Source: Sinorhizobium meliloti
GTDB lineage: Bacteria; Pseudomonadota; Alphaproteobacteria; Rhizobiales; Rhizobiaceae
Length of the DNA stretch: 32,000 nt
Reading direction: 5' to 3'
NCBI RefSeq assembly: GCF_017876815.1
Contig: NZ_JAGIOS010000003.1
Span: 1,260,001-1,292,000, forward strand
In this document: piece by piece, positions 3,447-26,888 of the stretch
How positions within the stretch are numbered: the first letter of the stretch is position 1
Layout: every line of letters starts with the position of its first letter
Position numbers and translations under genes: made by a program
Notes under the pieces: generated by a model
Told to the model about the DNA's origin: nothing
What the model saw: only the letters and a program-made list of their open reading frames with translations
Database searches by the model: none

Positions 3447-4054
3447 TCATGAAGGACGAGCGTCTCTCGGTACAGAAGTCTCGTCATGATGGTTTCGGCG
3501 AACCTGCGGGTTCATCTGGCGAGCAACTTTCAGCGCGGCTTCGCATTTATCCTGGAAGGCCTTTAAGACCTCATCGAGGTATTCCAAGCCGTGAGTTTTC
3601 ATGACGCAAGCGATGTCGAACATGTCGCGGGCTGCATCGCGCGCCGCGGTGTAAACCTTCTTTGCCATGATCTCGCCGGGGGTCTCGAGCAGAACCTGTC
3701 GGCCGCGCACCTCCGCTCTCACGGCCGGGTTGCCGGCAGGCTGCGGGCACAAGTCGATCTCGCCAACATTCTCGAAAACAATCTTCAATGTCCGCGATCC
3801 ATCGGACTCATAGCCGTCAGGGTTGATGTCGAGAGCGTATCCCTGTGTCTTCGGATTCAGATATGGCAGAAGTTGCGGATCATCTAGGAAAATGTCGACG
3901 TCGAAACTCTCATGGTGATGGATCTGGAGCATCGGGCCGTACCGCCCCCAAAAGTCCAACCGTCGATCATAGTAAGTTCGGAGTTTGCTTGTTCGATGAT
4001 GCGGCAAGCCTGTTCAAACAGGTCGCTCCATCTGCTGACCGGGTTTTCGACCAA
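3447..4054 (-). pseudogene. AbiEii/DUF1814-like nucleotidyltransferase (type IV TA toxin family), frameshifted
   Basis: One frame reads (TTG 4054) VENPVSRWSDLFEQACRIIEQANSELTMIDGWTFGGGTA. The 186-aa ORF frame then continues LMLQIHHHESFDVDIFLDD...LLETPGEIMAKKVYTAARDAARDMFDIACV. Together these give the GGGTAL...(S/H)xDxD nucleotidyltransferase motif and the C-terminal RD..D motif of this family. One added base near 3934-3936 fuses the frames. Confidence 0.55.
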
Positions 4055-4474: not shown

Positions 4475-4766
4475 CGGCGAAGCGGAGCCGGAAGAATAGG
4501 GGTCGTTTGAGAACCGAGCCGATGCTCTCTTCGGGGCGTAGTTACGCCTAGACGATCAGCCGGGCCGCTCGTCCATTCTTTCGCTCCGCATTGTTGTAAT
4601 AGCTGGCCGCCTGGGTCACCGATTTGTGCAGCGACTGCTGCATCGCCTCTGGAAGAGGGATGCCGCGGTTTGCAGCCTCGGTCAGATAGCCGGACCTCAG
4701 CCCATGGGCCGAAAACAGCGCCGGATCAAGGCCGGCCTGTTCACAGCGTGCTTTCAGGACCAGATT
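4475..4766. repeat. Second member of a direct repeat pair with 1025-1312, covering the recombinase 3' end and its downstream flank
   Basis: See 1025-1312. The two copies have the same orientation and about 85% identity by eye. The repeat extends about 70 bp past the recombinase stop codon. Confidence 0.8.
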
Positions 4767-5705
4767 GACAGACTGCGGCGTCAGCGCCCGTCGGTCGATG
4801 TTGCCCCACTGATCGATGCGCCGGAACACCGGGCCGTCCTTGATTTGCGCGTCGGACAGCCATCGCTTCAACACGGTCACCGGCCGGCCGATCAACAGCA
4901 CATGTTCGTTCTCATCGGCGGTCGTCGTCTTGGTGCGGCCGAGGCGGATCGACAGGCAGGGCAGGGGAGGGGAGTTTTCGTCGGCGGGATTGGCGCGCAC
5001 CGGCTCCTCGTCGGCGAGATCCTCGACGCGCAGCGCCGCCACTTCCGAACGGCGCCGGCCGCCGGAAGCGAAGGCGGCTAAAAGCAGTGCCCGGTCGCGT
5101 GCATCCACAAGTCTATCACCGGCGCAGGCCTCAAGCAGTTTCGTCAGGATATCGAGGGTTACCGCCTTCTTGCTCTTGCGCTGGCGCGGGCGGTTGCTCG
5201 CCTTGACCGCCAGCCTCACTGCGCTCTTCAGCGACGGTGCACCGAAGGCGCCGGTGAAACCGCGCCAACGGGTGAGGATCGACCAGGAGGTCAGCCGCCG
5301 CCGCACCGTGCCCGGCGCGTGTGGCCCGTCGGCCCTGAGCAGGCGCTCGGCGCGCAATCCGACCTCGACATCCGCTGGCATGCCATGGCTCGAATCCTCG
5401 GCGCGCTTGACCGGATCCCAGAGGTGATGGGCGACGAACTTCAGGAGCAGTGCTTCCGGCGCCGGCCAGGGGAGGGGGTCACCGGTGGCGAGGCGGCACC
5501 AGGCCTCGAGGTAACCGAGGTCGGAGGCCAGCGCGCGTAGCGTATTCTCGCCCATGCCCTCCTGCGCCAGGTGTTTGAGTGTGGCGACGTCGTCGTCAGT
5601 CAGCAGCGCGGCGAGCTGGTCGCGGCGGTCGAAGGGCAGGATGGCGTCGAGCGCGTCGAGTTCTTCGGCGCGGCTGGCAATGGGTGTCGATGGCACGATC
5701 GTCAT
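4548..5705 (-). CDS. Tyrosine site-specific recombinase/integrase
   Basis: This is a 385-aa ORF. The catalytic-domain landmarks appear in order: ASGGRRRSEVAAL (Arg), HGLRSGYLTEA (His-x-x-Arg), and LHKSVTQAASYYNN (His...Tyr nucleophile). Confidence 0.9.
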   Translation of the reverse strand: MTIVPSTPIASRAEELDALDAILPFDRRDQLAALLTDDDVATLKHLAQEGMGENTLRALASDLGYLEAWCRLATGDPLPWPAPEALLLKFVAHHLWDPVKRAEDSSHGMPADVEVGLRAERLLRADGPHAPGTVRRRLTSWSILTRWRGFTGAFGAPSLKSAVRLAVKASNRPRQRKSKKAVTLDILTKLLEACAGDRLVDARDRALLLAAFASGGRRRSEVAALRVEDLADEEPVRANPADENSPPLPCLSIRLGRTKTTTADENEHVLLIGRPVTVLKRWLSDAQIKDGPVFRRIDQWGNIDRRALTPQSVNLVLKARCEQAGLDPALFSAHGLRSGYLTEAANRGIPLPEAMQQSLHKSVTQAASYYNNAERKNGRAARLIV

Positions 5706-7376: not shown

Positions 7377-9043
7377 TTAGCTCGCCATCATGACGAGCTG
7401 CGACAAAGGCGGTATTGGCCGTATTGAGCTTACAAAGCCGAGGCGATCTCCCAAAAAATGATAGAATGAAATACCAAGCTTTTGGCAGCTCTTCATCAGC
7501 CCGAGCATGACGTCGCGGGCAATCCGGCCGTTAAGGCTTATGGTGCCGCCGGAGATCTTTCGCCTGGTGACGAAGGAACGAATATCGTTCTCGGACGCGT
7601 TGGTGTGCAGTGGAATATACGGGTGTTCGAGCACCTTGAGCAGTTCAGCCTTTCGTCGATGGAGGCGCAAGAGCAGCTTGTCGAGCGCCGCATAGCCGGT
7701 ACGTCGCGCGAATATTTTGTCGAACCTGCGCCGAAACCCGGTGATCAAATGCGGTGAAGGCCGTTGTTTCCAGACCTTCAGCGCCTTGTAAAAGCGCCAG
7801 ACGAGATCGCGGGTCGTCGTGACCAGCCGTTCCTGTTTCGGCGTCGCCGGCATCAGTTTCTGCAGCAGGCGTTCCGCATGGATCCAGCACAGGGCGTGGT
7901 TGGCGACACGGAATTGACCCGCATCGTCCGAAACGATCACCGTGTTGCCGAGCAGGCCGTGATGGCGGATGGCGCCCCAGATCGCCGCCTCCGCAACAGG
8001 ACGAAGAAGCTGTCGGTCGAGGATATCGATGTCCTTGCTGGCCAAATGCTCGAGGAACGCGACCTGATCGGTGAAACTGCAGGGGGTTCGGTCTTGAGCC
8101 TGGCCATGATCGCGTGCTCGACGCCCTGCGCCTTCAGCCAGTTCATCGCCTCGTCATTGAGAACATAGTCCTGATGACCCGCCCGCAGGACGGACAGGAA
8201 ATTAAGCCGCGACTTCGACAGGCTGGTTCGAAAGGTCGAAAAGCGCTCGCCGCCAATCTGGGAGGTGAAGGCATTGCGCCGATTGTGCCGCGCACCGGTA
8301 TCGTCGACCGTGATGAACGGCGCCGAGACCAGCCCAGCATGGAGAACCGCACTGTCTTCCTCGACGAACTGCTCAAGGTCGGTGGTGAGTAGCCGGACGA
8401 CCTGCCACTTCGAGATCTCGACGCCGATGCTGTTGAGGATCGCGGTCAGGCGCGGCGTCGTGATCTGCCCCTGGGCATGCAGCGCCAGGCAGGCGCGGCG
8501 CAGGTTCCGACCAAAGCCGCTGGAGACCCCTTCTGGCAAAGGCGCGATGATCACCTTGCCCTCTGGTGTCAGCCAACGTTCGCGTCGGTAGTTCACAAGT
8601 TCGGCCGCAAGCACCAGATCGCGCACGAAAAAGCTCTTGTAGCCTTTGAACCGAGAGCCTTCCGGCGCGTCTGCCCTCAGTGTCACGGTGCGCGTGATCC
8701 GGTTCGTGTCACGCTTGGGACCGCGTGGCGATTTACCAGCCGCACGATCACCGTTACCGGGTTCTGTCGCCTTCTCCATACCCGACGGTCGAAACGGCGG
8801 ACGCGGCGGCAGGTTCTTCAGGCGGGCAATCTCGTCGCGCAGCTGTTGGTTCTCAGCCTTGAGACGGGCTTTGTCGAGCCGAAGTTGGGCATTGTCTTCC
8901 CGCAAGGCTTCATTCTCGGATCGCAGCGTTGCGACCTCTGCCTTGAGCGCGTGCAGTTCCTCGACAAGGCCACCGACGAGGCGGCGCATCGCGAGCAGCG
9001 ACAGCGTCTCAACATGCTCGACCGAGGGCAGCCGCTTCTTCAT
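7377..9043 (-). pseudogene. IS66-family (TnpC-like) DDE transposase, interrupted by one frameshift
   Basis: The N-terminus is a leucine-zipper/coiled coil (LKAEVATLRSENEALREDNAQLRLDKARLKAENQQLRDEIARLKNLPPRPP). Downstream motifs are FITVDDTGARH, HALCWIHAERLL and HTNASENDIRSFVTRRKISGGT. The frames 9043-~8080 and ~8090-7377 fuse if one C is added to the C5 run, which appears as G5 at 8082-8086 on the plus strand. Confidence 0.8.
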
Positions 9044-9176
9044 GGCTGGAGGGAATCATGATTTCCCCACTCGGCGGAATCAGGCCAACGCACTTTGGAG
9101 TCAAGCCCGAGCATTATGCACAACTAACTGAAGGTCGCGCTCTGTCAGCGCGTGCCACCCAATTTGCCCCACGTAC

Positions 9177-9770
9177 CTCCGAGGGGATTTGCGGTCAGCA
9201 CGACCTACCCAGTGGAAACGCGAGCTAGCGGCCAGTCTGCGGGCACGGCAAAATTTCCTAGTTTCCTGAGTTTCCGGAGCGGAGCCGCGCAGATGTCTCT
9301 GCCGCAGCTGCATCCGGGCTCCAAATGTCCAATTGGCTTCGGCGCCGGCTGCGATGATCATGATGGGGTAACGAACTCGTCGCGAAATGCGTCTAAGCGT
9401 GGAGCGATCTTCGGAGCTCATCGCTGCGACCCCGCAGGGATGCGTGTGCCAATCCCCTAGACTATAGACTAGGATAGTCGAGGTCGCCCTGGGTTTTCCT
9501 GAAAGCTTCACTGATCTGTCCGACTTGCCAGGAATGGTCTAGGATGAACGCGTGGCGGTCGTGAAGCGCCCTATGGCCAGCACCCAGCACATCAACGACA
9601 AATCGGTCCGCGCCATCCCTCCAGCCGAGGGGGACGCCGCCGGTTTCAGGGGAAAGAACGCGGTGGCCTGGGCAATCATTGATGCGACCGCGTCTTGTCC
9701 GAGCCAGATCGTCACCCGTGTGACGCTCCGCAATAACGGGGAATGCGGCTCCACCGTCTCGGAACGCCAT
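9177..9770 (-). pseudogene. JAB/MPN+ (Mov34 family) metalloprotease gene, frameshifted by a 7-bp tandem duplication, with its 3' end abutting the IS66-like element
   Basis: The upstream frame reads ...SPETGGVPLGW...FILDHSWQVG...QGDLDYPSL and then stops. The downstream frame reads LGDWHTHPCGVAAMSSEDRS, which is the JAMM motif HxHx7SxxD. TAGACTA-TAGACTA lies at 9458-9471. The start at 9770 (MAFRDGG) or 9836 is uncertain. Confidence 0.65.
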
Positions 9771-9912
9771 TGCAAAGCCAGCGGTCGCAGTCGCTTTGTC
9801 TCTAGTAAGGCTTAGGGGTAACGTTGCGCATGGCAAAGAGTTCTCGGCTCGACGGAAAGAAGGATGATCCGAGGGGTTTCAACCCGCTTTGACTTGAAGT
9901 CGCTCCGGCGCA

Positions 9913-11334
9913 TCACTGGCGAGGGGGAGGATCGGGCTGAACGGCTCCGCCGACGATAACTTCCGCGCCAAACGGACTTGCGGTGGAACACATGGGCGTT
10001 GACACAAAATCACGGACGCCTTCGACTCGACAGACGCGAGGCGTCGGTCCTTGCAGTGCGCCCTCCTTGCATGCGCGGCAAAGACGCGTGAATGCGGCCT
10101 CCAATTGCAGCGAGTAATCCAACGCGGTCGCGCCACCCCATCCATGACCCGGTACCGATTCCGATGGGATCGTGAGATTGCCGCCGATCACGTTAGTCAG
10201 ATACTTCATGCGCAGATCGTCCCGTACAGTTTTGTCGCTAAGCGTGGTGAGGTTGTATTTGGAGGCGCTGGGCACGATGCCGAGCACCTTGGATCGCGGC
10301 CATTGCGCCAACGCGTGACATGACATGCACGAAGAGCGCAGATTATCGGCCGGACCGTTCAGCCGCCCCTGAAATCCCGGCCAGGGACGTTCACTCCAAG
10401 TCTGATTGGAGCCACGCCAGACGACCCCGGCAAGATCCTGGTTCAGTTGCGTCTCTGCGAGCGCGGCGAACGCGTCACGAGATTGGGCGGCAGCCTCCGG
10501 GTCATTACCCCACATCAATCCAACTGGAACAAGGTTCTGAAACAAGCCATCGCCCACCTTTGGGCCTTTCCATACGAAGGTTCCAAAGACCCATTTGGTC
10601 GCCGATCGCGGATCCTTAACTGCAATATCGACCTGAAGAAGACGAAGCTTTTGCTCTCCTCGTCCACCACCCGTCGCCTTGTCGATAAATGCGAGGACCT
10701 CGGGAGCGCCATCCAAATATGGAACCTGCTCCTTCGTCGCATTCGTGAACAGGAGTTTGAACGAAGCAGTCTGATCAGGGAAGGTCCAGTTAGCGGTTGG
10801 AATGAATGGATCGCAGGGTTGAGCGAAGACCTGCGAGAGGGCGTACGCGCCTTCCTGGTTGTAGAATCCCACAGCCCATACCTGCAAACCGCCGGGAGAT
10901 CCGGGGGCCAAATCTCCTGAATCGGGCCCGCGCTCCTTGGTGAGTCCGAGATTTCGTTCACGTCCGTTCAGAGTGTAATCCATCCATGGTGAAATCCACC
11001 ATTGAGCGTCGCTTTGCATCCGAATCATATTGTCCTCGATCACGAGGTCGCTAATCTTCACCTCACTCAGAACAGCAGCCATGTAAGTTCGCCAGTCGCC
11101 GAGTTCTGTATCAGACCAGGCATGGCTGATATTCGGTGGCAGCGACGTTGGTAGATCCGTACGCCACGGAACATCGATCCGCTTGGTTTGGGGGTTGTAG
11201 GCCGTGCTTCGATCCGTCGCCATCCGGGCACAGAACGAAAGCGGCTTTGCATGCCCCGTCGCCAGATTCATGGTCCCTACCGTCGCAAAGATTATCGCGG
11301 TACCTAAGCAGCAGGCACTGATGCTGAAGCGCAT
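9913..11334 (-). CDS. Secreted protein of unknown family with a single CxxCH heme-c-type motif
   Basis: A GGAGAG RBS precedes the ATG at 11334. The Sec-type signal peptide is MRFSISACCLGTAIIFATVGTMNLATGHA. The motif NLRSSCMSCHALAQWP (CxxCH) lies in the C-terminal third. A TTG at 11370 is an alternative start. Confidence 0.7.
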   Translation of the reverse strand: MRFSISACCLGTAIIFATVGTMNLATGHAKPLSFCARMATDRSTAYNPQTKRIDVPWRTDLPTSLPPNISHAWSDTELGDWRTYMAAVLSEVKISDLVIEDNMIRMQSDAQWWISPWMDYTLNGRERNLGLTKERGPDSGDLAPGSPGGLQVWAVGFYNQEGAYALSQVFAQPCDPFIPTANWTFPDQTASFKLLFTNATKEQVPYLDGAPEVLAFIDKATGGGRGEQKLRLLQVDIAVKDPRSATKWVFGTFVWKGPKVGDGLFQNLVPVGLMWGNDPEAAAQSRDAFAALAETQLNQDLAGVVWRGSNQTWSERPWPGFQGRLNGPADNLRSSCMSCHALAQWPRSKVLGIVPSASKYNLTTLSDKTVRDDLRMKYLTNVIGGNLTIPSESVPGHGWGGATALDYSLQLEAAFTRLCRACKEGALQGPTPRVCRVEGVRDFVSTPMCSTASPFGAEVIVGGAVQPDPPPRQ

Positions 11335-11371
11335 TTTTCTCTCCGAGACGATTAGAGGAGATTTGCCCAAA

Positions 11372-12472
11372 TCATGAGAATGACCCTGCGTGCGCGAGGG
11401 CGTTTTCCGATGAACACCGTCGTGTCCAGAATCCTGTCTTAAACCGATCGCGCCCCGCGCGGTACGAGCTGAGACGCTGAGCCAGGTAGCGTTGATAGGA
11501 AGCCCGTGATTTTTGTTCGAGGAGCGCTAGCTTATCCGGACGTGTGTCGAGCGCTATCGAGATTTCTTCTGCCATGCGGATAGCTGACCAAAGTCCGCGC
11601 CCTGCAAGCGGATCAAAGCTCGCCTGGGCATCGCCCAGTCTGAGGGAGGTGGGATCAACTTTCAGGGGCAACCAACGACAAGGAATGGGGATCGCTTGGA
11701 ACGCGATAGGCTGCGACAACTTGGTGACCAAGCTTGCAACACGGTCTGTGGCGTCTAGGACTCTCGAGACAATGGCGCGTGGCGTTTCACCAGCCAGCGA
11801 TTCCGCGTCAGTGATCACACCTAAGCACGCAAGGTTGTCAGGGCCGACTATCCCATAGGCCCATCCGTCCGCGGCAGCTTCAATTAGCAAGCGTGTGTCG
11901 AGCGAGTCGTCGACACCATCTATCCTGCCAAACGTGACGAGCGCGATAAGTCTGTCATTATAGCCGGTCGCGGACCGCAGACCTGACCGACTGTTGACGC
12001 ACCCCGACGCCAGAATTCGCCAGCTGACTTCATGCTGTGCTGCCGAGGCGAGCGTCCCAGTGTTTTCCGACAAGACTGGCTGCTCGTTGTCCGAAGCAAA
12101 TGTGACGCCCGCCTTCGCGACGTGGTCCCGAAGCAGAACTTCAAAGCTGGCGCGATCGACCGCCCATGCGGAGCCGAATGGTCCAGTCAGGTAATCATGG
12201 CAGTGGGCGTCGTCGGTATCCCACCGACACCAACTTCCTGGACATGGCCTAGCAACAGTGTGGATTTCGTGGGGGGAAAGTCCGAGCCTGAGCAAAACCG
12301 AGAGGGCAGAAGCTCCAAGGACATCGATACGGGACTGGCGGGATTGGCGTCTCGACGGGTTGATGAGCCTGACCCCCCAGCCGCGTTGTGCCAATGCCAT
12401 GGCCGCCACCAAAGCTGCAGGTCCATCGCCGACAATGTCCGCCTTAGATGTGGCGTGGGCGGCGATGTTCAT
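11372..12472 (-). CDS. LodB/GoxB-like FAD-dependent flavoprotein, expected to be the cofactor-maturation partner of the LodA-family oxidase
   Basis: This is a 366-aa ORF. Its N-terminal dinucleotide-binding motif is DIVGDGPAALVAAMALAQRGWGVRLI. Its start overlaps the stop of the LodA-like gene (ATGA at 12469-12472), which reproduces the canonical lodA-lodB order. Confidence 0.7.
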   Translation of the reverse strand: MNIAAHATSKADIVGDGPAALVAAMALAQRGWGVRLINPSRRQSRQSRIDVLGASALSVLLRLGLSPHEIHTVARPCPGSWCRWDTDDAHCHDYLTGPFGSAWAVDRASFEVLLRDHVAKAGVTFASDNEQPVLSENTGTLASAAQHEVSWRILASGCVNSRSGLRSATGYNDRLIALVTFGRIDGVDDSLDTRLLIEAAADGWAYGIVGPDNLACLGVITDAESLAGETPRAIVSRVLDATDRVASLVTKLSQPIAFQAIPIPCRWLPLKVDPTSLRLGDAQASFDPLAGRGLWSAIRMAEEISIALDTRPDKLALLEQKSRASYQRYLAQRLSSYRAGRDRFKTGFWTRRCSSENALAHAGSFS

Positions 12473-14412
12473 TGACCAAACCTCATTTTGCGAACCGCAA
12501 TGCGATCGGCCTCGTTGGAGAAGCCCGCCGCCCGTGCTCGCAAATCCGCTGCCGACAAGGTCACCAGTGGTGGAGCGGGAGCCCTAATGACACCATCAGC
12601 ACCAGCGCCGGAGACCTTGTTTTTGGTGCCAGGATGTGTTTCCACATAGATGATCGACGGGATCTGGTCGTCTCCTGCAACGCTCGGATAAGCCTCGACT
12701 ACACCCATGTTCCCGTATTGATGAACGAGATATTCTCCCCAGTCCTGACCTGGGCTATTGAGTGGCGCAAACCAACTCCTCCGTTGGTTGAACGCGTTCA
12801 GCCGTTCCTCCCTCGGAAGTGAGGGGTTGATGACTTTCAGGTAGTTCTCATGGGCGAGCACGTGGTTGGGAACCCGTGAGGGCCAGAAGCTTGGCGCATC
12901 GAATGCCAGGCCATCCTCATACCCTGCGAGGCAACCACCAGTGTCTATCTGCCATGGGAGCAGCATCCATCTGGATAAGGCACCCGGGTGCTGACCGTGC
13001 AGAGGTCCCGTCGAACCGAGCGCCGTGCCGACGTCCAGATGCGTACCGTACTCAGGTTCCGGCTTGGTAGCGCGCGCGATGCGGAATGCCTTTGAATAGA
13101 TCGACAGATGGCGCATTGGCCAGGTCAGCTCAATCCCCGGATGAAACGCGTCCGCCGCACAGAACTCCAGCGCCGCGCGATCCAGCGCGGCCGGCTGATC
13201 GCCGAGTGGATGCTGACCGATGGAGGACGGGGAAGGTGGGAGCGTGCCCCAATCGGCAATGAAATTGCCTTCGCTCCAGGCCTTGAGATAGCGCAAACGC
13301 TCGCCGCCTAGAGCGAGGTTCTGGTAGCGGTCGCTGTCGGGTCCCGTCCCGTAGGAATCTCCATAGAGCCATGGCCACGCAGCTGGATCGGAGACGTGAT
13401 CTGTTTGCTCGCGAAACATCTTGAAAATCGCCATGCGCAGCGGTTTGAACACGTCGACTGCGGCGCCGCCATGAAGATGATTTATCTGGTCGATTCTGTC
13501 CTCGTCCAGAAAATCGAACGGTGCAGTATGGCCGAAAACGGCGGCGAACGCCTTGTTGACCCACTGAAGGCCGCTCAAGCGAGCGAGAATGGGGTAAATG
13601 TCCTCCGTGAACGAGATCGTTGACTTCTGGGGAAGCCAATCCGCCTCCACAAAAAGATCTACAAGCAGGTCATATAGCGTCCGCCACGATTTGAGATCGG
13701 GGGCGTAGTTCGGAGGGGCGGAGACGACCCATGCTCCCTCGGTTGGTATCTCGTTGCCGTTGACGCGCACGGTTGCGTCGACGGGCCCGTCGGCGATGTC
13801 GTCATGCCAATCTTCCGCGTTGCCGAATGCGTCATTGTCTGAGTCGACGTAAGGTGGGGCGCCACTGGGCGAACTCGATACGCCATGACCACCAAGGAAA
13901 AGCAGACGCCCTTCCGCGGTTGTTCGGAGCTCACCGAGGTCTACGGCCACGCCCTTAAATGTACCCGTATCAAAGTGATGAGCTTCCGAACCGGCCTGAT
14001 TGCGGCCCGATATACAACGGCTGCCTGGATCGATCACAAGTTTGCGACGTTCATCAGGATCCAGGATCTTGGGATTTCGGCGTTCGACGATCGTATCCTT
14101 GAGCGTGTCCAAGTCCATCGCGTGTCGGAATTTGAACCAGGCGGCCTTGGCGTTCGCAACGTGAACGTTCCAGACGATATCGGCATTATCAGCGGTCAAT
14201 TCGGCAACAACATTGTCATCCTTGTCGTATCCATAGATACGGAACTCCACAGCTTCACGCTTGAGATGACCGCTCCTATCATGGGAGGTGTCGACTGGCC
14301 TCGGCGGGGGGGTGGCAACTTGCGGCGCCAGCAGATACTCATCCTGGCTGCTGCCGAGCCGGGCAATACCAATAGCCGGGTGTATTGACGCCCGGACGAT
14401 CCTGTTGACCAT
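12469..14412 (-). CDS. LodA/GoxA-family quinoprotein amino-acid oxidase, of the cysteine tryptophylquinone-dependent type
   Basis: A GAGGGG RBS precedes the ATG at 14412. The N-terminus MVNRIVRASIHPAIGIARLGSS matches the hallmark LodA N-terminal motif I-H-P-x-I-G-I-A-R-[VL]-G. The product is about 647 aa. Candidate cofactor residues are the Cys in LEFCAADAFHPGIELTW and the Trp in LLPWQIDTGGC. A LodB-like gene follows. Confidence 0.8.
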   Translation of the reverse strand: MVNRIVRASIHPAIGIARLGSSQDEYLLAPQVATPPPRPVDTSHDRSGHLKREAVEFRIYGYDKDDNVVAELTADNADIVWNVHVANAKAAWFKFRHAMDLDTLKDTIVERRNPKILDPDERRKLVIDPGSRCISGRNQAGSEAHHFDTGTFKGVAVDLGELRTTAEGRLLFLGGHGVSSSPSGAPPYVDSDNDAFGNAEDWHDDIADGPVDATVRVNGNEIPTEGAWVVSAPPNYAPDLKSWRTLYDLLVDLFVEADWLPQKSTISFTEDIYPILARLSGLQWVNKAFAAVFGHTAPFDFLDEDRIDQINHLHGGAAVDVFKPLRMAIFKMFREQTDHVSDPAAWPWLYGDSYGTGPDSDRYQNLALGGERLRYLKAWSEGNFIADWGTLPPSPSSIGQHPLGDQPAALDRAALEFCAADAFHPGIELTWPMRHLSIYSKAFRIARATKPEPEYGTHLDVGTALGSTGPLHGQHPGALSRWMLLPWQIDTGGCLAGYEDGLAFDAPSFWPSRVPNHVLAHENYLKVINPSLPREERLNAFNQRRSWFAPLNSPGQDWGEYLVHQYGNMGVVEAYPSVAGDDQIPSIIYVETHPGTKNKVSGAGADGVIRAPAPPLVTLSAADLRARAAGFSNEADRIAVRKMRFGQ

Positions 14413-14458
14413 GCTATTCCCCTCACGTCGATGTCTTGCAGCCGTTTTACAATTGCAA

Positions 14459-15185
14459 TTACTTCCCGAATTCGCGCCGCTCATGAAAGACCTCGACCGT
14501 CTCCAGGCCGTAGCTGCGTAGGACGCGTACACTTGATGTCGACGTCAGCCGCGTTTGGTCGCTCCAGGCCGGCAGCCATCGTATGCCAGCGTGTGTCGCC
14601 TTCCGGAACTTGCTCACCAGTTCGAGGCCGGGAACATCATATACCCCTTTCCGGCGATGCTTGTCCTGGACGGGCTCTGGGTCAGTATAGCGAATGCCCA
14701 AAGTCCGTGCGAAGGATTGGTGCAGAAATGAATTCCACGTTGAATTCGTTTCCGTCCGGTAGAACCGGAAAATCGCTGCCTCCGGAAACAGGAGAGGCAC
14801 GCTTGAGCCCAACCGTCAGGGGGCCCAAGGGAGGCGAGGGGAGAAGGAAATTCAAACTTAGGGCGGCGTCACGACGTTGTTCGGTGAGCGACGGATGCTG
14901 GCTTGATCGAAGCGAGATCTCGTTCGCCGAAATGACGTATGTGCGCGGGGCGCCGGGACCTGGCGATATCACTATTTCGCCGCGCACGCGCAGATTTGAA
15001 GAAAGACCGCGCGGTTCGACATAGACGCGCAGCACAGTGCCCTTACCTGCGATCAGCCTGACATCGTGAGCCACATTCTGGATCGCGCGCGTCGCTTCAA
15101 AGCCCAGAATCCGGAGCCCCGCTTGCACGGGGCCGGCGGATATCTTCCAGCGGCGGCGGGCTGTCGGAACGTCGATGAAAACCAT
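14459..15185 (-). pseudogene. Unknown gene between the catalase-like and LodA-like genes, apparently frameshifted near 14690-14730
   Basis: An AAGGGG RBS precedes the ATG at 15185. Frame A (167 aa, MVFIDVPTARRRWKISAGP...LIAGKGTVLRVYVEPRG...) stops at 14682. The +1 frame continues ...TLGIRYTDPEPVQDKHRRKGVYDVPGLELVSKFRK... to 14459, 46 nt before the LodA start. This fills an otherwise unexplained gap of about 270 nt. Confidence 0.45.
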
Positions 15186-15237
15186 TTCAGCAGCCCCTTT
15201 CTGTCATGGCAGGTGCAAGCGTTTGTCTTGTCGCGGC

Positions 15238-16305
15238 TCAGCGCGGGCTCCGGGGTTCGACGGTTGGCACACCGTTGGTGTTGCGACGCAAATACGCGGA
15301 TGAACGATATGTGATCCGGCGAGAGTCAGCTATCGACCCCAATGGACGATTGGCTTCCGGCGTTCGCCACGGGTGTATTGAGATGTTGTCTCCGTAGATC
15401 GACTGTCCGATCCGGTTGATATCCTGTTGCTCGATGGTCAGTGTGCCGATCGCGTCGAACGGCGTTGGCCAGCGGCGAGTTGCTGCGTCGATCGGCGTCT
15501 CGCTCTCCATTGAAAAGCCCTGGACAGCAAACTCGAAAACCGCCTCGCCTGAAGAAAGGTGTTGCGCCAGATCAACCTTGAGAAAGTTCGGATCTGATCC
15601 TGCGGCTGGGGTCTGTTTCGGCGCGTCGAGTGGGCGCAGACGATACTTAACGATCGCTTCAGGTCCGCAAGCATAAGGCAGAACGCTCCAGTAGGTCGCG
15701 GTCAAGACACTTGCTTCCGGTTTTGCCATCTCGTCCAGAACGACTTTCGTTTCTGGGTGAGCAGCAAGGTAAGCCTCGATATCACCAAAGACTGCCGCTT
15801 CCGAAAAGGCGCAGAAGTCCTGACCGGTGTCGACGAAGAACCGATCATGGTTCTGCATCACCAGATCCGCCGTTCCGGCGTCCGGATCGTCGGCGTCCAG
15901 CGTGTCACCGTGCACCCCGAAAAGCTTGATGCCAATACCGAGCGTTGAATTTGCACTGTCCGGAGTGTTTGGGGCGGTATCGCTGGAGAACCGCACCCAT
16001 GCGGCAAATTCACTATGGGCGAAGAGGCCGTGTCTGAACCTGTCAGGGATGGCTGAGCTCATCCGAAGGCTCGCTCTCGCGACCCCATGGACCTTTCGAA
16101 AAACCGGTCTCGGAGCAGGCCTTTCCCCAGCGTCGATGAAATGCTTCTGAACGACATCGACGAAGACACGACGTGTTTCCTCGCGAAACGAAAGTTCGCA
16201 TCGTGGGTTTGACTGCGAGGTTTCGTTCTGCTGCGAAGCAGTTGATTGCTTGTTTGTGAGAAGCGCCTTCATGTCGGCGTGAAGTTCGGTAAGCGACCTA
16301 GCCAT
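15238..16305 (-). CDS. Catalase-related heme protein of the y4iL-like subfamily
   Basis: A GAGGA RBS precedes the ATG at 16305 (MARSLTELH...). The sequence reads RPVFRKVHGVARASL (distal His context), GLFAHSEFAAWVRFSS, LGIGIKLFGV, DLVMQNHDRFFV, and a C-terminal SRRITYRSSAYLRR (proximal Tyr context). The product is about 355 aa, shorter than true catalases. Confidence 0.8.
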   Translation of the reverse strand: MARSLTELHADMKALLTNKQSTASQQNETSQSNPRCELSFREETRRVFVDVVQKHFIDAGERPAPRPVFRKVHGVARASLRMSSAIPDRFRHGLFAHSEFAAWVRFSSDTAPNTPDSANSTLGIGIKLFGVHGDTLDADDPDAGTADLVMQNHDRFFVDTGQDFCAFSEAAVFGDIEAYLAAHPETKVVLDEMAKPEASVLTATYWSVLPYACGPEAIVKYRLRPLDAPKQTPAAGSDPNFLKVDLAQHLSSGEAVFEFAVQGFSMESETPIDAATRRWPTPFDAIGTLTIEQQDINRIGQSIYGDNISIHPWRTPEANRPLGSIADSRRITYRSSAYLRRNTNGVPTVEPRSPR

Positions 16306-17147
16306 TTCCTCAGCCCCTTCCGAGAATTGGACAATCGAAAGGCATGCGCATGCGCTGCGGCACTCAATATACGTTGGTAGAATTACCTTAAGAACGCTAG
16401 TAACGGTGGTATAAAACTCGGCGACAGTCAAGTGGGCTCTAATATTAAGCTGGCTTGCGCCGCGAGCCAATCTGGCGCGCGGCGGGGACGACCGGAGGAT
16501 TCGGAGCTTATCTTGCAAGCCCTTGAGAGCGTCTCTTGCGGACTGTACGGCACGCCCGAGGTGGTAGATCAGGCCGAAACCGAACAGATATTCATCGGCT
16601 TCGACAACAGAATGGCTCGATCTGCCGCAAAGCTACAGCCTCCATCCCAACGACATGATGACGATGATGCAAGGGTCAGAATGAGCTGAACGTGACCGCT
16701 CCCGCCGTTACGCCGGTTGTTGTTCACCCTATGCTAGAGTGTCAGCTACTCCAAAGGTTTAGTCCAAAGGAGGAAACTACTTTGAATTGCGCTTGACTGA
16801 TGTTATGCTAAATTAGTGATGAAAAACCCAAGGCTTGCAACGTACAGGTTTTTTGCTGCCGTAAATGCCTGACTCTCACCAGAATGGGTCGGGATTGCCC
16901 AGCGTAGTATGTGCTGAGATTGTTGGGGGTCATGCAGGTAGAAAAATGCAAGGACAAGATGGACGCTCCAGCTGTTTGGCGTCCGCCCCTCTTATGCGGT
17001 TGGTCGGTCGGAGGCTAAATTGCAATCGCGCTGCGCCCAAGCAAGACGGCTACAAACACACGCTCACGAAGTTTGCTCATTTCAGCAAAGGGCGTCCCGG
17101 TAAGGAAAATGAAGGTGACTTAGTTTCAATTCGGGAGGCTTTTGGAA

Positions 17148-20124: not shown

Positions 20125-20433
20125 CAAACTCACGCTGAACCCCCTCAGTTAAAGTCGCTTGCCGTCTGTATCACTGCAGGTCATGCCCCCCTTCGGGCTG
20201 CGACACAATGTTGACACACAACTATCCGGGCACGGTAGATTCTTCGATCGTCGTGTTTTCGCAACCGTAAGCGAGAAGACCTGTAGCTGATCTCATCGTC
20301 CTGGCGCTCGCGGCGCATCGAAAACGCTGATTTGCGCCAAAGGTCTTGGTTGCATTTCATTGGGGATATCACTCATTCTGATTGCAGCCGCGGAGCCAAG
20401 CATACAATAATCCCTCGACTCAACGAGGCAGAA

Positions 20434-23400
20434 ATGGGCGGCAAAAAGAAAAGCAAAACCAAGGTATCGCCGGAGCCGCGCAGATATGAAACTCCGCCCG
20501 CGGACGCAATCACGCTCCCTTCCTTGAAACGACATTCCGTGCTGCCCCTCGTCGATGTGGGAAGCCGACAGTTCGAGGAGATCTGCCGCGACCTAATGCG
20601 GCAAAGCTATCCGGATTTGCGCCCCGTAATGAAGAGACGAAGCGGGCAGCCGCAGTTCGGTGTCGACGTCGAAGGATTCAACGACCTGCAGGAGCCAGCG
20701 GTCGTTGTCTCGGCAAAATGCTACAAGGACATACAGCCCTGGGAGTTTCGGGCCTGGATCGAAGACTTCACCACGCACCTTGAGGGTCACTGGAAGGGAA
20801 AGGGCGTAAAAGAGTTCATCATCGCTGTATCGATCGAGCGAAACAACGACGATATGAACGATGCGGCGAGGGAACTCGCTCGCGTACTTGCCAGCAACAA
20901 CATCAAGTTCAAGATCTGGGACTCGGTCGAAATATCGGAAATGCTCGGAAAAGATCCGCGCTTGATCGACCGATATTTCAACGAAGCCTGGGTCAAGGCT
21001 CTTTCCGCTGATTTCGATGTAGGCACTTCGACTGCCGCAACCGGAGCCTTGGTCTCGGCGCGAGGTCCGACTGCGTCGCAGGGGGCGATCCTATCTCAGA
21101 TCGAAAGCCTCTACGTCGGCCCCCTCAACCAGATGCTCTCCGCCACCTTGGAAGACGCGGTCTCGGATCTTCGCCGCGGCAAACCGTCGAAGATAAAGCG
21201 GTGGTTGCAAGACGCCCGATCCGACTTCATCACATGGCAAGGCGCAGAGCCTGACCTCAAGGCGAAGGGGCTTCGCGCATCGGCAATGGTGATCCTGGGC
21301 GAGGGGGATCTCGATGGGGCCGAGCAGCTTCTCGATGAGGCGGACGCTTTTGTGCCACCGCCGGACCGAACGGCCCGAGCATACCTGATCAGAGCGCGAA
21401 GCGGCGGCGCGGCGGCCAGAAAATACTTGCAGGATCCGGACGGGCGCCGCGAGCGCGAATTGATGGCTGCGCTCCTGATCGAGGCTCGCCAGCCGAACAA
21501 GGCGCTCGAGCCACTTGCGCCGCTCATCGGTGACGAGGCCTCCGCGGAGGTGCTGCGGCTGCGCGCCATTGCCACCCTGTTAACGGGTGGGCGCCGATCA
21601 GAGGCTATTAATCTGGTAGTTTCGGCCACTACGAAGGAACCTGATTCGGCAATGGCGTTGTTTGCCCGTGGCGCGGTCCGGTTTGCCTGCGCGCTGGTCG
21701 ACGGGGTCGATCTGCAATTCGGCGGGGTGCCGAACCCGATCGGGAGGTCGTTGGTTCGCTCGACGCCGGAAGCCCGTACGCACCTGTCACATGCGGCTGC
21801 CGATTTCGACCGTCTCCTCGATACAGTGGAAGGCGACTTCAGGCGAGAAGTCGAAGTCTGGAAGCTGGCGGCATTGCTTCTCAATCCTGACACCAGAGCA
21901 GCGGGAAGATCGTTTGCCCGATCGTTGTTTGCTCGTGACGACTACGACCCGTCCGCAGTAGCGTGGGCACTGTTGAGCGGGCTGCCGCTGCGTCAAGGTC
22001 GGATCAAGAAAACACTTGGAGATGCCTTGCGCGAGGGGAAGGGAACTCCGGGCCATGTCGCCATCCTTGCGCTCATGGCAGCCGGCCCCAGCCACCCGGA
22101 GCGCGGGATGGCCGTGATCGAAAAGTTCGCCAGCATGTTCCCTGATGCCGGTGACTTCTTTGACCATTGGCGCGGTCAGTTCGCAACCAAGGATGGCGAA
22201 GACGCCGAAAGCTTCTCGGCGGTCATGCGACACACACTGGCTACCAAGGACGTCGGCCAGTTGTTCACATTCCTGACTACAGGCGACGTTCCCATCGAGA
22301 ACCTGCTCGCGGGTTCGGAGATGCTGGCATCGATGGACGCGTTCAGAGAGCTTGACGCTCTCCGGGGCAAACTCGCCCACCTTGGTTCCGGCCGCGCAGT
22401 CGAGCTTGCGGCGGTCGCCGCGCTGAACAACGGAAATCCGCGTGCTGCGATTTCAATCCTCAATTCCGCGCGCGCGGACGGCATCGACATGTCCAGGCGA
22501 CTGTCATACGTCCGCTTGAAATCGTGGGAGGCACTGGGCAGTCATCGGGAGCTAATAGACGACATTCAATCGCTGCTCAGAGAGCATGAAGATCCGCTTC
22601 TGCGGGACGAGCTCCTCAACGCCTACCTCCGGATCGGCTCTCTCGACGGAATTAGAGAGCAGGCGGAGTTCGTTCTGAAGCATGGCGAAATCGACCAGCG
22701 GAAGGCCGTTCAAGTCGCCCTTGCGCTTCGTTCGTATGCTCCGGAGATCGCAAGGCAGGCGCTCGAAGGAATTGGTACGGAGGGCCTCCCGGAGGATCTT
22801 TCCGGCGCCGTCCTCGAACTGTCTAGCAGGCTCGGTCTTGCCACGCTTCAGGACGAAATAATCCGGAAAATGGTCGCCAATTCGGCAAGCAAGGAGACCG
22901 TTCAACGATTCGACAGCGTCGAGGACGTCCTCAAGGTCCTGGAAGAGCACGCCAAGGAATACCGCTCACGTCTTGATCAATGGATGCACGGTCGGCTGCC
23001 TGCGGCCGCGGCAATGCGTGGCGATCCGAAAGACTACATTTCGCTATTCCTCGCTCAACCTGCGACGCGGCATAACCGGTTAGGAGACGCCTTGCCGATG
23101 ATGCTACTATCCGGAAAGCCGCATGACGCAGGCGCGCTGCCAGACGGAGAGCGTCCGGCGTTGCGCCTGGATCTCAGTGCTCTCCTGATTGCGGCTCGCT
23201 GCGAGTTGCTGGATGACCTCGAGCACTGTTTTCAGATTCATATTCCGGAGTCGCTTCCGGAAGTCCTCGTCCTAGTCACCGCAGAATTTCATCAGGTCCT
23301 GCCCCTGGTGGCCGGGGCTGTAAGGACCCTTGCGAGCGGCGACAGCGCGGTCGAAATCTGCCAGAGCCCTCCCGATGGGGTCATGGAGTTGTTCGCGTTC

Positions 23401-25337: not shown

Positions 25338-26888
25338 TTAGTGGTAATAGCGAGGTCCGCGGATGTTGGCGTGATGGATCGGTTCATGCGGCGCCGCTCC
25401 ATTTGAGGCAGCCGTCCGGTCAAGGTGATTGTCGAGGATGGATCGCACCGAGCCATAGGTTCGTGCGCCAATCTCCAACGCACGGCCGCAAGCGGCATTG
25501 ACCCTGTCGCGGCCGAAGCTCTTGTTGAGGCGGATGATGCCGAGGCAAGCTCGAAAGCCCTGCTCGGGATGAGGCCTGTCGGCAAGAATGCGCTCGCACA
25601 ACAGCGCAACATCCGGCCCCATCGCAGAGGCTTCGCGTTGAATCCGTTCAATCGTCCAGTCGGCAAAGCGGCGATGCGCAGAGGGCATATGATCGGGGAT
25701 CGTCGTGTGCTTGCCGTTGCCGCTGGAGCGCCGGTGAGCGGCAATTCGCTCGCCCTTGTGGAAGATCTCGATCGTATTGGCGGTGATACGAGCCTCGACC
25801 TGCTCGCGGGCAAAGCGATAGGGAACGGAATAATAGTGCCGCTCGATCTCGACGTGATAATCCAGCCCGGCGCGCCGGATACGCCATTCGGCAAAGACAT
25901 AACGTTCGACAGGCAGCGGTCGCAAAGCCGGACGATCAAGCTCCTCGAACAATTGGCGGCGCGTGGCGCCGACACGGCGCAGAACGCGCTTATCATTGAG
26001 ATCATGGAGCAATTGGCCAATCGCCGCATTGACCTCGGCCAAACTATAGAAGATGCGATGGCGCAGCCGGCCCAACAGCCAACGTTCGACGATACGAACC
26101 GCAGCTTCCACTTTCGCCTTGTCCCGCGGGCGTCGCGGCCGCGTCGGCAAGACGGCGCTGCCATAATGGGCCGCCATCCCGCAATACGTCCGGTTGACCT
26201 GGGGATCGAAGTGGCAGGCCTTGATGATCGCTACCTTGGCATTGTCGGGAACCAGCAAGGCTGGCGCACCGCCAAAGAACTCCAGCGCCAGGATATGGCA
26301 TTCAATCCAGTCGGGAAGCGTCTCGCTCCAACGTGCCTGCGCATATGAAAGGCTGGATGCTCCCAGAACCGCCACGAACAGGTGCGCCTGCCGTGTCTTG
26401 CCGGACAGCCGATCAACGACAACCGTGACCGTGTCGCCGGCGTAGTCGACGAACAGCTTGTCGCCGGCCGCGTGATCCTGCCGCATCGTCACAGGCAACT
26501 TCATCGCCCAGCCGCGGTAGAGGTCACAGAAGCGACTGTAACGATAGCCCTCCGGATAACGGCTGATGTATTCGTCCCAAAGGATCTGCAGCGTCATATG
26601 CTTGCGCTTCAGCTCGCGGTGGACCTGCGTCCAGTCCGGCTCAGGGCTCCGACGATGACCCGTCTTCGTCCCGCCTGCCTTGTAAAGCGCCGCTTCCAGG
26701 ACTGCATCGCTGATGTCGTCACCCAACGGCCACGATAGCTCCGCAATGGCCGCACGCCGAAGCGTCTCGCGCACCGTCGATGGCGCAGCTCCAACCCGAA
26801 CCGCGATCGACTTGTGGCCAAGTCCTTGTTCGAAGCGATATCTCAATATCTCGCGGACACGCCGCATCTCCAGTCTCTCCGCAGGCAT
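25338..26888 (-). CDS. istA: IS21-family DDE transposase IstA
   Basis: The 516-aa ORF has an N-terminal HTH (MRRVREILRYRFEQGLGHKSIAVRVG). Integrase-core landmarks are LFVDYAGDT, LVPDNAKVAI and PRDKAKVE. Confidence 0.95.
   Translation of the reverse strand: MPAERLEMRRVREILRYRFEQGLGHKSIAVRVGAAPSTVRETLRRAAIAELSWPLGDDISDAVLEAALYKAGGTKTGHRRSPEPDWTQVHRELKRKHMTLQILWDEYISRYPEGYRYSRFCDLYRGWAMKLPVTMRQDHAAGDKLFVDYAGDTVTVVVDRLSGKTRQAHLFVAVLGASSLSYAQARWSETLPDWIECHILALEFFGGAPALLVPDNAKVAIIKACHFDPQVNRTYCGMAAHYGSAVLPTRPRRPRDKAKVEAAVRIVERWLLGRLRHRIFYSLAEVNAAIGQLLHDLNDKRVLRRVGATRRQLFEELDRPALRPLPVERYVFAEWRIRRAGLDYHVEIERHYYSVPYRFAREQVEARITANTIEIFHKGERIAAHRRSSGNGKHTTIPDHMPSAHRRFADWTIERIQREASAMGPDVALLCERILADRPHPEQGFRACLGIIRLNKSFGRDRVNAACGRALEIGARTYGSVRSILDNHLDRTAASNGAAPHEPIHHANIRGPRYYH

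Follow-up and report, generated by a model that had tools for sequence, protein, structure and literature searches.

Gene content of the locus

The window, namely the whole stretch of 32,000 nucleotides of Sinorhizobium meliloti DNA analyzed here, contains a block of closely spaced features on the minus strand, which are listed below in window coordinates.

15238..16305, minus strand: gene for a catalase-related (y4iL-like) haem protein, 355 aa, intact
14682..15185, minus strand: 5' remnant of a metzincin-like gene, a 167-aa ORF
14607..14681, no strand: deletion scar, mapped by DNA alignments to the related loci L091, L088 and L001 and by protein tblastn
14459..14606, minus strand: 3' remnant of a beta-sandwich partner gene, residues 148-204 in two frames
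12469..14412, minus strand: gene for a LodA-like oxidase, 647 aa, intact
11372..12472, minus strand: gene for a LodB/GoxB/QhpG-type flavoprotein, 366 aa, intact
9913..11334, minus strand: gene for a secreted CxxCH protein, 473 aa, intact
9101..9836, minus strand: JAB/JAMM pseudogene, frameshifted at about 9481-9483
7377..9043, minus strand: frameshifted IS66-family transposase remnant at the downstream edge of the block

A previous sequence-only reading had described six tightly packed genes that form one functional operon. We found that four of these (catalase-like, LodA-like, LodB-like and CxxCH) are indeed intact minus-strand ORFs at the positions given, and that the chosen starts match the N-termini of homologues. 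The reported spacers of 52, 46 and 37 nt were reproduced, the ATGA overlap (4 nt) of the LodA and LodB genes was seen in the junction sequence, and a purine-rich stretch resembling a Shine-Dalgarno motif was located 5' of each start, as claimed. However, the operon of six functional genes was not upheld, because a deletion has left only a remnant at the "unknown ORF", and the JAB gene is itself an unrelated remnant disrupted by a frameshift.

The supposed JAB/MPN gene is split by the frameshift into two ORFs (9836..9462 and 9511..9101), which correspond to the two halves of a single JAB model, N-terminal and C-terminal, respectively, with TIGR02256 positions 12-72 in one and 70-119 in the other. 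The best PADLOC matches of this remnant were CBASS-type JAB proteins, and a JAB gene was found at no relative's LodA locus; we accordingly rejected it as a cluster member, and its position here does not exceed chance. The adjacent IS66 remnant comprises two ORFs (7937..9043 and 7377..8045), where identical S. meliloti contigs carry gene calls with ZapB-like and DDE_Tnp_IS66 domains. Both remnants are mobile or defence debris with no relation to the cluster. Also near the block are genes for an integrase, for toxin-antitoxin components and for a Mu-type transposase.

The "unknown gene" consists of the remains of two conserved genes

The segment from 15185 to 14459 had been regarded as a single gene. 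Its length of 727 nt is not a multiple of three, reading from 15185 yields only 167 aa before a stop at 14682, and the 3' part lies in other frames, so that a single ORF was rejected. The segment is what remains of two conserved genes, encoding a metzincin-like protein of 407 aa and a beta-sandwich protein of 204 aa, both of which are still intact in close relatives, where they lie between the catalase-like gene and LodA. The 167-aa ORF corresponds to the N-terminal beta-sandwich domain (residues 1-159) of the 407-aa protein, with 86% identity to residues 1-159 of L091 M407 by tblastn, and at the DNA level window positions 15260..14678 align to L091 8019..8600. The HExxHxxGxxH catalytic domain has been deleted: approximately 72 nt replace approximately 1173 nt of ancestral sequence (L091 8601..9773), a loss of about 1.17 kb, and within the scar lies a short piece of the beta-sandwich gene in inverted orientation (14611..14661, plus strand, by tblastn). 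Downstream of the scar, window positions 14606..14460 align to L091 9774..9946, and tblastn placed residues 148-171 of the beta-sandwich protein at 14606..14535 and residues 172-204, in a different frame, at 14560..14462. The same broken state was observed in six S. meliloti contigs.

In relatives, the metzincin-like protein possesses the HExxHxxGxxH motif and a Met-turn, and its AF2 model (pLDDT 90) matches the fold of the ADAM-8 catalytic domain with a probability of 0.99; it has no obvious signal peptide and no known family assignment. The 204-aa protein corresponds to the C-terminus of fused forms of approximately 620 aa. The pair recurs with LodA in Alphaproteobacteria, Gammaproteobacteria and Actinobacteria, and the module adjoins LodA in Bradyrhizobium macuxiense and Streptomyces, for example. 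LodA was present at 10 of 17 well-flanked metagenome metzincin/beta-sandwich loci, and no LodA was within reach at the other 7. The pair is a recurrent partner of LodA that appears to be previously undescribed.

LodA-like and LodB-like proteins

The LodA-like protein, which is 100% identical to S. meliloti protein P0001, matched both Pfam domains of the family (LodA_N, 1.2e-70; LodA_C, 1.1e-30) and lacks a signal peptide on sequence inspection. It was rejected as a LodA or GoxA equivalog, since its scores were far under the NCBIfam cutoffs (GoxA, 380 bits against 750; LodA, 186 bits against 600). It probably belongs to the uncharacterized group IVA or III of PMC4417212, and the taxa in the supplement of that study favor IVA over III. 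Residues D490 and C494 align to D678 and C682 of PlGoxA, and C494 also to C516 of LodA; the aspartate equivalent to PlGoxA D678 is the residue mutated in PDB entries. The absence of cofactor residues had been named as grounds for abandoning the sequence-only reading, and both the Cys of the cysteine tryptophylquinone (CTQ) and the preceding Asp are present. W510 and W547 are invariant in the alignment, and either is a candidate for the CTQ partner.

The LodB-like protein matched Pfam FAD_binding_3 and scored 103 bits with GoxB, 100 with QhpG and 61 with LodB in NCBIfam, all under the cutoffs. A LodB homologue was found 3' of LodA in 65-66 of 80 loci.

The catalase-related haem protein as a partner of LodA

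No signal peptide was seen in the catalase-like protein on sequence inspection, and no match was found in the Pfam or NCBIfam models. It does match PDB 3E4W (E 8e-9), a catalase-related peroxidase of Mycobacterium avium paratuberculosis, with Tyr333, Arg329 and Arg340 aligned to Tyr301, Arg297 and Arg308, respectively, and R66, H73, N152 and Y333 are invariant among 15 sequences. With the N-terminal domain of P0069, a fused LodA homologue, it shares 41% identity (E 2e-81); in such fusion proteins of approximately 1000 aa, the catalase part forms the N-terminal domain.

Among 80 species-representative LodA loci, the catalase-like partner was fused to LodA in 40, separate but adjacent in 8 and missing from 32. 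The proposal that this protein is a genuine partner of LodA is therefore supported, although its absence from 32 of 80 loci indicates that the partner is optional. The link is strong and was already published, contrary to the claim of novelty: the fusion was described by Campillo-Brocal et al. in 2015 (PMC4417212) and mentioned again in 2026 (bioRxiv 10.64898/2026.03.27.714854).

A probable, partly broken copy of a conserved cluster

The idea that LodA and LodB lie within a larger conserved unit was borne out. The same gene order recurs, with the genes intact, in four other lineages, which indicates that the co-occurrence of the catalase-like gene, the remnant, LodA and LodB exceeds chance. 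The five-gene order with intact middle genes was found in a Xanthobacteraceae MAG, Microvirga arsenatis, a soil metagenome contig and R. leguminosarum, and P. donghuensis has the same order with a different first gene. In a Mesorhizobium relative, LodA (81% identical) and LodB occur alone, and these two genes would be a sufficient unit there. In three lineages, tyrosinase genes are found next to the cluster.

We consider it probable (roughly 0.7) that the block is an accessory, probably plasmid-borne and partly broken S. meliloti copy of a conserved, biochemically uncharacterized LodA-family cluster, of which the window is a poor exemplar. The ancestral order would have been the catalase-related haem protein, the metzincin-like protein (407 aa), the beta-sandwich protein (204 aa), the LodA-like CTQ oxidase and the LodB-like flavoprotein. 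A secreted P460-like CxxCH protein would then have been gained at the 3' end in one rhizobial sub-lineage, and in S. meliloti the deletion of about 1.17 kb, together with frameshifts, would have destroyed both middle genes and with them the contribution of the metzincin module.

From family knowledge, the LodB-like flavoprotein would hydroxylate a Trp of the LodA-like protein, which would then cross-link to Cys494 to form CTQ, and the mature enzyme would convert a primary amine and O2 to an aldehyde, ammonium and H2O2. The catalase-related protein, with His73 and Asn152 as putative distal residues and Tyr333 as the putative proximal one, may consume this H2O2 where it is formed, whether by dismutating it in self-protection or by using it as the co-substrate of a peroxidase reaction. 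For this clade, we infer the substrate, H2O2 release and haem binding from homology only. Given that LodA and LodB alone would suffice in the Mesorhizobium relative, the S. meliloti locus is predicted to encode what may still be an active oxidase with its haem partner.

Alternatively, the whole locus could be defunct, a remnant carried on a mosaic accessory replicon, in which four ORFs have not yet been hit and nothing is expressed or functional. The deletion of two cluster genes and the mobile and defence debris in and around the block are in line with such decay, and the block was absent from all PLSDB plasmids, the IS66 remnant being the only part of the query with near matches there. Sister loci are also damaged: an in-frame TAG interrupts the LodB gene of R. 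leguminosarum, and metagenome contig L095 has neither LodB nor the catalase-like gene, which suggests that the whole cluster may be non-functional in rhizobia. The block is present in at least six S. meliloti assemblies; all copies are identical, so that selection on the remaining genes has no support. However, the four ORFs (355-647 aa) are uninterrupted and keep all catalytic or cofactor residues and their Shine-Dalgarno motifs, and the persistence of the block in these assemblies, together with the viable LodA-LodB pair in Mesorhizobium, makes complete loss of function unlikely.

It is also conceivable, if rather improbable, that the substrates of the ancestral cluster are amines bound in peptides or proteins, not free amino acids, and that this ability is lost in the S. 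meliloti copy. The metzincin and its beta-sandwich partner would generate the substrate or mature the LodA-like pro-enzyme, and the haem peroxidase would use H2O2 for follow-up oxidation or cross-linking. The recurrence of the pair with LodA across three bacterial groups, the failure of the LodA-like protein to qualify as a lysine or glycine oxidase equivalog, the name peroxidase given to the nearest solved catalase-like relative and the flanking tyrosinase genes all fit this idea. A protease also has a precedent in the maturation of a CTQ enzyme, namely QhpE of the qhp system. This support nevertheless comes entirely from gene context, the metzincin-like protein has neither an obvious signal peptide nor a known family, and at 7 of the 17 well-flanked metzincin loci no LodA lies within reach.

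The CxxCH gene as a lineage-specific addition

The CxxCH protein (C336, C339 and H340) carries a Sec-type signal peptide on sequence inspection. Its family yielded 834 homology matches, the motif GRLNGPADNxRSSCxSCH is invariant, and CxxCH itself is invariant in 22 diverse members. The top PDB fold matches of its AF2 model (pLDDT 85.8) were nearly all cytochrome P460 or c'-beta, albeit weak (E >= 0.02). A Variovorax homologue (37.5% identical) carries the annotation "cytochrome P460 family" and reaches 24.2 bits with Pfam PF16694, under the cutoff of 27; the window protein has no match to this model. We conclude that the CxxCH protein probably binds haem c and contains a cytochrome P460/c'-beta-like domain.

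The gene lies 37 nt after LodB on the same strand, occupies the same position in R. leguminosarum and directly follows LodA in L095. Its product is 73% identical there, compared with 73-75% for LodA, which points to co-inheritance. However, a general role of a haem-c partner was not sustained: the gene adjoins LodA only in three rhizobial lineages (S. meliloti, R. leguminosarum and one soil metagenome contig), each with a locus damaged somewhere, and a homologue was found in none of 160 other loci (0/80 species-representative genome LodA loci and 0/80 metagenome metzincin loci). It is also absent from closer relatives, whose LodA proteins are 76% and 81% identical. In the proposed comparison of neighbors, conservation was thus found for the catalase-like gene, the remnant genes, LodA and LodB, in part for the CxxCH gene and not for JAB; the place of the CxxCH gene in the cluster exceeds chance only partly, as it recurs in two other lineages, and the gene is a lineage-specific addition.

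The view that the co-directional genes all belong to a single functional operon for a LodA variant that is self-protected or coupled to electron transfer and analogous to quinohaemoprotein amine dehydrogenase, in which the CxxCH haem protein takes electrons from the CTQ enzyme or handles its nitrogen or peroxide product, agrees with the co-inheritance, the invariant motif, the fold signal, the similar QhpG and GoxB scores of the LodB-like protein and paralogues of the CxxCH family that adjoin other oxidases, but is very unlikely given this narrow distribution in damaged loci, the weakness of the fold match, family members in unrelated contexts, the two pseudogenes ("unknown" and JAB) and a signal peptide on the CxxCH protein alone, its lack on LodA and the catalase-like protein arguing against direct electron transfer.

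Comparison with known systems

The two-domain oxidase, the Asp-x3-Cys motif of the CTQ site and the flavoprotein gene directly downstream are shared with lodAB/goxAB of Marinomonas mediterranea (LodA, lysine-epsilon-oxidase; GoxA, glycine oxidase; PDB 3WEU and 6BYW), whereas the LodA-like protein has low identity to the solved enzymes and the cluster has extra conserved partner genes upstream. The pairing of a y4iL-like domain with the LodA family is common to the group III catalase/LodA fusions (PMC4417212); in the window, however, the haem protein is encoded by a separate gene, ancestrally parted from LodA by the metzincin/beta-sandwich pair. Of the solved structures, sequence comparison matched only that of the M. 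avium subsp. paratuberculosis peroxidase (PDB 3E4W/3E4Y), although the similarity is low and confined to residues 98-342, and this peroxidase has no LodA partner. In coral fusions of catalase-related allene oxide synthase and lipoxygenase (PMC5617202), a catalase-fold haem domain is joined to the producer of its peroxide substrate, so that the peroxide is used where it arises; neither the producer nor the chemistry is related, the peroxides there being fatty-acid hydroperoxides and not H2O2 released by amine oxidation, and the comparison is no more than an analogy.

In the qhp system, a CTQ enzyme that works with c-type haem is matured by the flavoprotein QhpG, and the system includes a dedicated protease. 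Unlike qhp, the window has no QhpC-type small CTQ subunit, radical-SAM QhpD or dihaem QhpA, and its CxxCH protein contains a single haem motif and is predicted to adopt a different fold. As in cytochrome P460 and c'-beta, the single CxxCH of this secreted protein follows a beta-sheet domain, although the protein is three times larger (473 aa compared with about 150).

Layout of the gene block and its copies in S. meliloti

The sequence-only reading had described six packed minus-strand genes, and four of these are intact open reading frames:

16305..15238, minus strand, catalase-like gene (intact ORF, 355 aa)
14412..12469, minus strand, LodA-like gene (intact ORF, 647 aa)
12472..11372, minus strand, LodB-like gene (intact ORF, 366 aa)
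11334..9913, minus strand, gene of the secreted CxxCH protein (intact ORF)

Inspection of the sequence bore out the overlap at ATGA, the close spacing and the Shine-Dalgarno-like motifs, but the 'unknown gene' and the JAB gene are not genes. The intergenic spacers in the block are short, which bears on the predicted operon; consensus scans of the block for promoters and terminators gave counts at or below shuffle expectation and no convincing terminators. All block genes were 100% identical across six S. meliloti contigs, and the LodA-like protein was 100% identical to a protein of at least six S. meliloti assemblies. When PLSDB plasmids were searched for near-identical DNA, the block was unmatched and only its IS66 edge was matched, which left the block without an annotated counterpart. 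Overall, the sequence-only reading is confirmed in part as an observation and supported in part as an interpretation: a larger conserved unit around LodA and LodB does exist, but its S. meliloti representative is in decay.

The 'unknown gene' is the remnant of two conserved genes

The putative gene at 15185..14459 spans 727 nt and contains a stop at 14682, with the rest in other frames. We compared the block with related loci and found a gene order common to four lineages (listed below), in which a catalase-like gene (351-369 aa) is followed by genes for a 407-409-aa protein, a 202-204-aa protein, LodA and LodB. The locus from R. leguminosarum was reached via its CxxCH neighbour gene. In P. 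donghuensis (LodA 61% identity), the five-gene order is kept and the first gene is different.

Lineages sharing the order catalase-like, 407-409-aa, 202-204-aa, LodA, LodB, with the identity of their LodA to that of the window
Soil metagenome contig: 83%
Microvirga arsenatis: 76%
R. leguminosarum: 73%
Xanthobacteraceae MAG: 70%

In DNA alignments, window 15260..14678 corresponds to positions 8019..8600 of the comparison locus L091, and window 14606..14460 to positions 9774..9946; therefore, approximately 1173 nt have been replaced by approximately 72 nt in the window. Of the 407-aa protein, residues 1-159 are retained; the 204-aa protein is left as a frameshifted tail, and a small inverted fragment is also present. 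The 'unknown gene' is thus what remains of two genes that are conserved elsewhere. The inverted fragment (14611-14661, plus strand) corresponds to residues 118-134 of the 204-aa protein and lies inside the deletion scar, which suggests a rearrangement, not a clean deletion.

The 407-aa family (487 hits) has the HExxHxxGxxH motif and Met-turn of metzincins; the intact relatives carry the zinc site HELAHTFGRLH and the Met-turn MTY, both of which are deleted from the window copy, where only residues 1-159 are left. An AF2 model of the 407-aa protein (pLDDT 90) showed a beta-sandwich at the N-terminus and another domain that matches the ADAM-8 metalloproteinase (probability 0.99). The 204-aa protein, the beta-sandwich partner, matched the C-terminus of fused forms of approximately 620 aa (E 9e-15). 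Pfam and NCBIfam scans left both proteins unmatched, together with the 555-aa and 367-aa proteins encountered near some of these loci.

A recurrent metzincin/beta-sandwich partner of LodA

We examined 80 species-representative genome loci that encode relatives of the LodA-like protein (44-70% identity) and recorded the neighbouring genes. The metzincin/beta-sandwich pair was present in 5 of them and the CxxCH gene in none. LodB was detectable downstream of LodA in 65-66 of these loci. The metzincin/beta-sandwich pair adjoins LodA and LodB in Bradyrhizobium macuxiense and Streptomyces. Among the 17 metagenome loci of the 407-aa family that have 4 kb or more of flanking sequence on each side, LodA was present in 10 and the 204-aa gene lay directly downstream in 14. 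The metzincin/beta-sandwich partnership was not found described in a literature search for a link between LodA and metalloproteases, and this recurrent partner of uncharacterised LodA-family enzymes is the chief new point of the analysis. Intact clusters, such as those of Microvirga arsenatis and Pseudomonas donghuensis, are better exemplars of it than the window copy.

Other genes recur around the module. A DUF8225-type protein of approximately 367 aa, sometimes together with the 555-aa protein, recurs close to the metzincin/LodA module in loci without the catalase-like gene, namely in P. donghuensis (L089, 5283-8056), B. macuxiense (L098) and 10 of 80 metagenome loci. The B. macuxiense cluster is flanked by ferritin-like (PF12902) and radical-SAM genes. 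In three lineages, a tyrosinase gene is found beside the cluster: Microvirga arsenatis (L088, 5901-6905), where the tyrosinase is PvdP-like; the locus L091 (5302-6831, minus strand); and R. leguminosarum (L093, 2146-3399, minus strand), where it is accompanied by HEAT_2 and SCO1/SenC genes. Because of these flanking tyrosinases, tyrosinase remnants were sought in the window, and none was found.

The LodA-like oxidase and its flavoprotein

The 647-aa protein matched both LodA_N (PF17990, 1.2e-70) and LodA_C (PF18417, 1.1e-30) in Pfam far over the cutoffs, and scored far under the NCBIfam equivalog cutoffs for GoxA (380 bits vs 750) and LodA (186 vs 600). By its profile scores, it is a member of the LodA/GoxA family and not an orthologue of lysine or glycine oxidase. 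The protein keeps the cysteine of the cysteine tryptophylquinone (CTQ) cofactor: D490 and C494 align to D678 and C682 of PlGoxA, the CTQ Cys lying four residues past the conserved Asp, and C494 is also aligned to LodA C516. PlGoxA D678 is the residue altered in PDB mutant entries; a literature search on PlGoxA residue numbers yielded nothing useful. For the CTQ Trp, there are two candidates downstream of the Cys, W510 and W547, both of which are invariant, along with D490 and C494, among 15 clade members in the LodA-like alignment. The phmmer and profile alignments to LodA end at C516, short of the LodA CTQ Trp, W581, and a C-terminal fragment used as the query matched GoxA only.

The 366-aa flavoprotein gene lies directly downstream, with a 4-nt overlap, and its product scored nearly equally for GoxB and QhpG in NCBIfam (103 and 100 bits), and 61 for LodB. 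The quinohaemoprotein amine dehydrogenase (qhp) system includes QhpC (the small CTQ subunit), the radical-SAM protein QhpD and the dihaem protein QhpA, none of which was matched by the ORFs in 9100-16520 (Pfam and NCBIfam).

The uncharacterised group IVA includes similarly sized proteins from Mesorhizobium and Microvirga (Campillo-Brocal et al. 2015 supplement, PMC4417212), and the window clade probably belongs to group IVA or group III. Groups III and IV were defined in 2015 in a paper (PMC4417212) that gives neither a characterised member nor a known substrate for them, and literature searches turned up none of later date.

The catalase-related haem protein

The sole solved-structure match of the 355-aa catalase-like protein was 3E4W (E 8e-9), described as a catalase-related peroxidase of M. 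avium paratuberculosis. Y333, R329 and R340 align to Tyr301, Arg297 and Arg308 of 3E4W, the proximal Tyr ligand and Arg residues, and R66, H73, N152 and Y333 are invariant in the alignment of catalase-like proteins. A Pfam scan that included PF00199, at E values up to 10, gave no match for this protein or for the fused N-terminus of P0069, a catalase-LodA fusion homologue, and NCBIfam gave no match for the catalase-like protein.

The catalase-like protein shares 41% identity (E 2e-81) with the first 340 residues of LodA homologues of approximately 1000 aa. Of the 80 species-representative loci, 40 encode its homologue as an in-frame fusion with LodA, 8 encode it as a gene of its own next to LodA, and 32 lack it. 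The partnership is real, yet already published: the fusion was reported in 2015 as pfam00199/cd08152 y4iL-like, 'group III' (PMC4417212), and mentioned again in a 2026 preprint (bioRxiv 10.64898/2026.03.27.714854), so that the suggestion of an undescribed arrangement does not stand for the catalase link. The biochemistry of the fusion appears in neither source. A literature search on y4iL found nothing useful. The coral fusions of catalase-related allene oxide synthase and lipoxygenase, in which a haem domain is likewise joined to a peroxide supplier, offer a useful analogy.

Proposed mechanism

Beyond the gene identities, the conserved cofactor and haem-ligand residues, the fusion and neighbourhood statistics and the deletion, which come from the analysis itself, the chemistry can be sketched from knowledge of the families. 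The LodB-like flavoprotein would build CTQ on the LodA-like protein, the resulting enzyme would oxidise a primary amine with release of H2O2, and the catalase-related haem protein would consume the H2O2 at its source, more probably as a peroxidase than as a catalase. The metzincin module might generate the substrate or mature a pro-enzyme, both of which are speculations. At its broadest, the catalase-related protein, the metzincin/beta-sandwich pair and LodA/LodB could form an unrecognised bacterial system that oxidises peptide- or protein-bound amines and uses the H2O2 in situ, analogous to lysyl oxidase plus peroxidase and joined in some rhizobia by a P460-like haem-c periplasmic partner; we consider this reading unlikely, at roughly one chance in eight. 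Two recurrent partners give concrete leads to function, namely the catalase-related haem protein, which in many loci is fused to LodA, and the metzincin/beta-sandwich module, of which the literature searched gave no description.

The secreted CxxCH protein

Members of the CxxCH family (834 hits, approximately 450-480 aa) begin with a signal-peptide-like segment and share the invariant motif GRLNGPADNxRSSCxSCH. The window protein has an N-terminal signal-like segment, a single invariant motif (C336-x-x-C339-H340) and a beta-sheet-rich AF2 model (pLDDT 85.8). The PDB matches of the model were weak (best Foldseek E 0.02), and most of the top 15 were cytochrome P460 or c'-beta. The window protein gave no match in Pfam, including PF16694, or in NCBIfam; a 37.5%-identical Variovorax homologue, annotated as 'cytochrome P460 family protein', scored 24.2 bits on PF16694, under the cutoff of 27. 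The CxxCH protein carries a secretion signal, whereas LodA and the catalase-like protein have none.

In S. meliloti and R. leguminosarum, the gene comes next after LodB, and in a soil metagenome contig (L095) directly after LodA; its identity (73%) is on par with that of LodA. It is missing from the LodA loci of Microvirga, Mesorhizobium, the Xanthobacteraceae MAG and P. donghuensis, and from all 80 metagenome loci as well as the 80 genome loci; other members of the family occur in contexts unrelated to LodA. A general haem-c partnership with LodA is not supported; the link is confined to three rhizobial lineages.

All three LodA loci that bear the CxxCH gene are damaged, S. meliloti by the deletion, R. 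leguminosarum by a stop in LodB and L095 by gene losses. The LodB-like gene of R. leguminosarum (L093, 8870-9979; also L094) is interrupted by an in-frame TAG (codon 175, Leu in the window protein); the TAG is present in two independent read sets, and therefore this otherwise complete six-gene cluster is also damaged. In L095 (6399-11251), the metzincin gene is 5'-truncated, the beta-sandwich gene is frameshifted, and the catalase-like gene and LodB are lacking.

Paralogues of the CxxCH gene stand beside other oxidoreductases and hydrolases on R. johnstonii pRlX3 (L101) and a Variovorax plasmid (L100), in two arrangements: amidohydrolase, CxxCH, hypothetical, GMC oxidoreductase and ferritin-like; and S41 peptidase, P460-family protein and amidohydrolase. 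The R. johnstonii locus shares a Phd/VapC/integrase module with the window.

The JAB remnant and the mosaic surroundings

We rejected the JAB gene as part of the LodA system. A frameshift at approximately 9481-9483 splits it, so that a single JAB model matches with its N-terminal half in one ORF and its C-terminal half in another, the best matches of the remnant are CBASS-type JAB proteins, and JAB is missing from every related locus. The JAMM motif HTHPx7SxxD is intact in the remnant (9101-9836) though the domain is split, and neither a cyclase nor an E1/E2 partner was found near it in this region of the window. Neither the haem-c nor the JAB association in the window should be over-read.

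A frameshifted IS66 lies beyond the remnant, and the surroundings of the block are mosaic:

3447-4007, minus strand, AbiEii toxin fragment
4548-5705, minus strand, tyrosine integrase
20332-24684, plus strand, 1450-aa ORF with no family hit
25338-26888, minus strand, Mu-type transposase

A RepC-family gene occurs near the block in the contig of one strain (L081).
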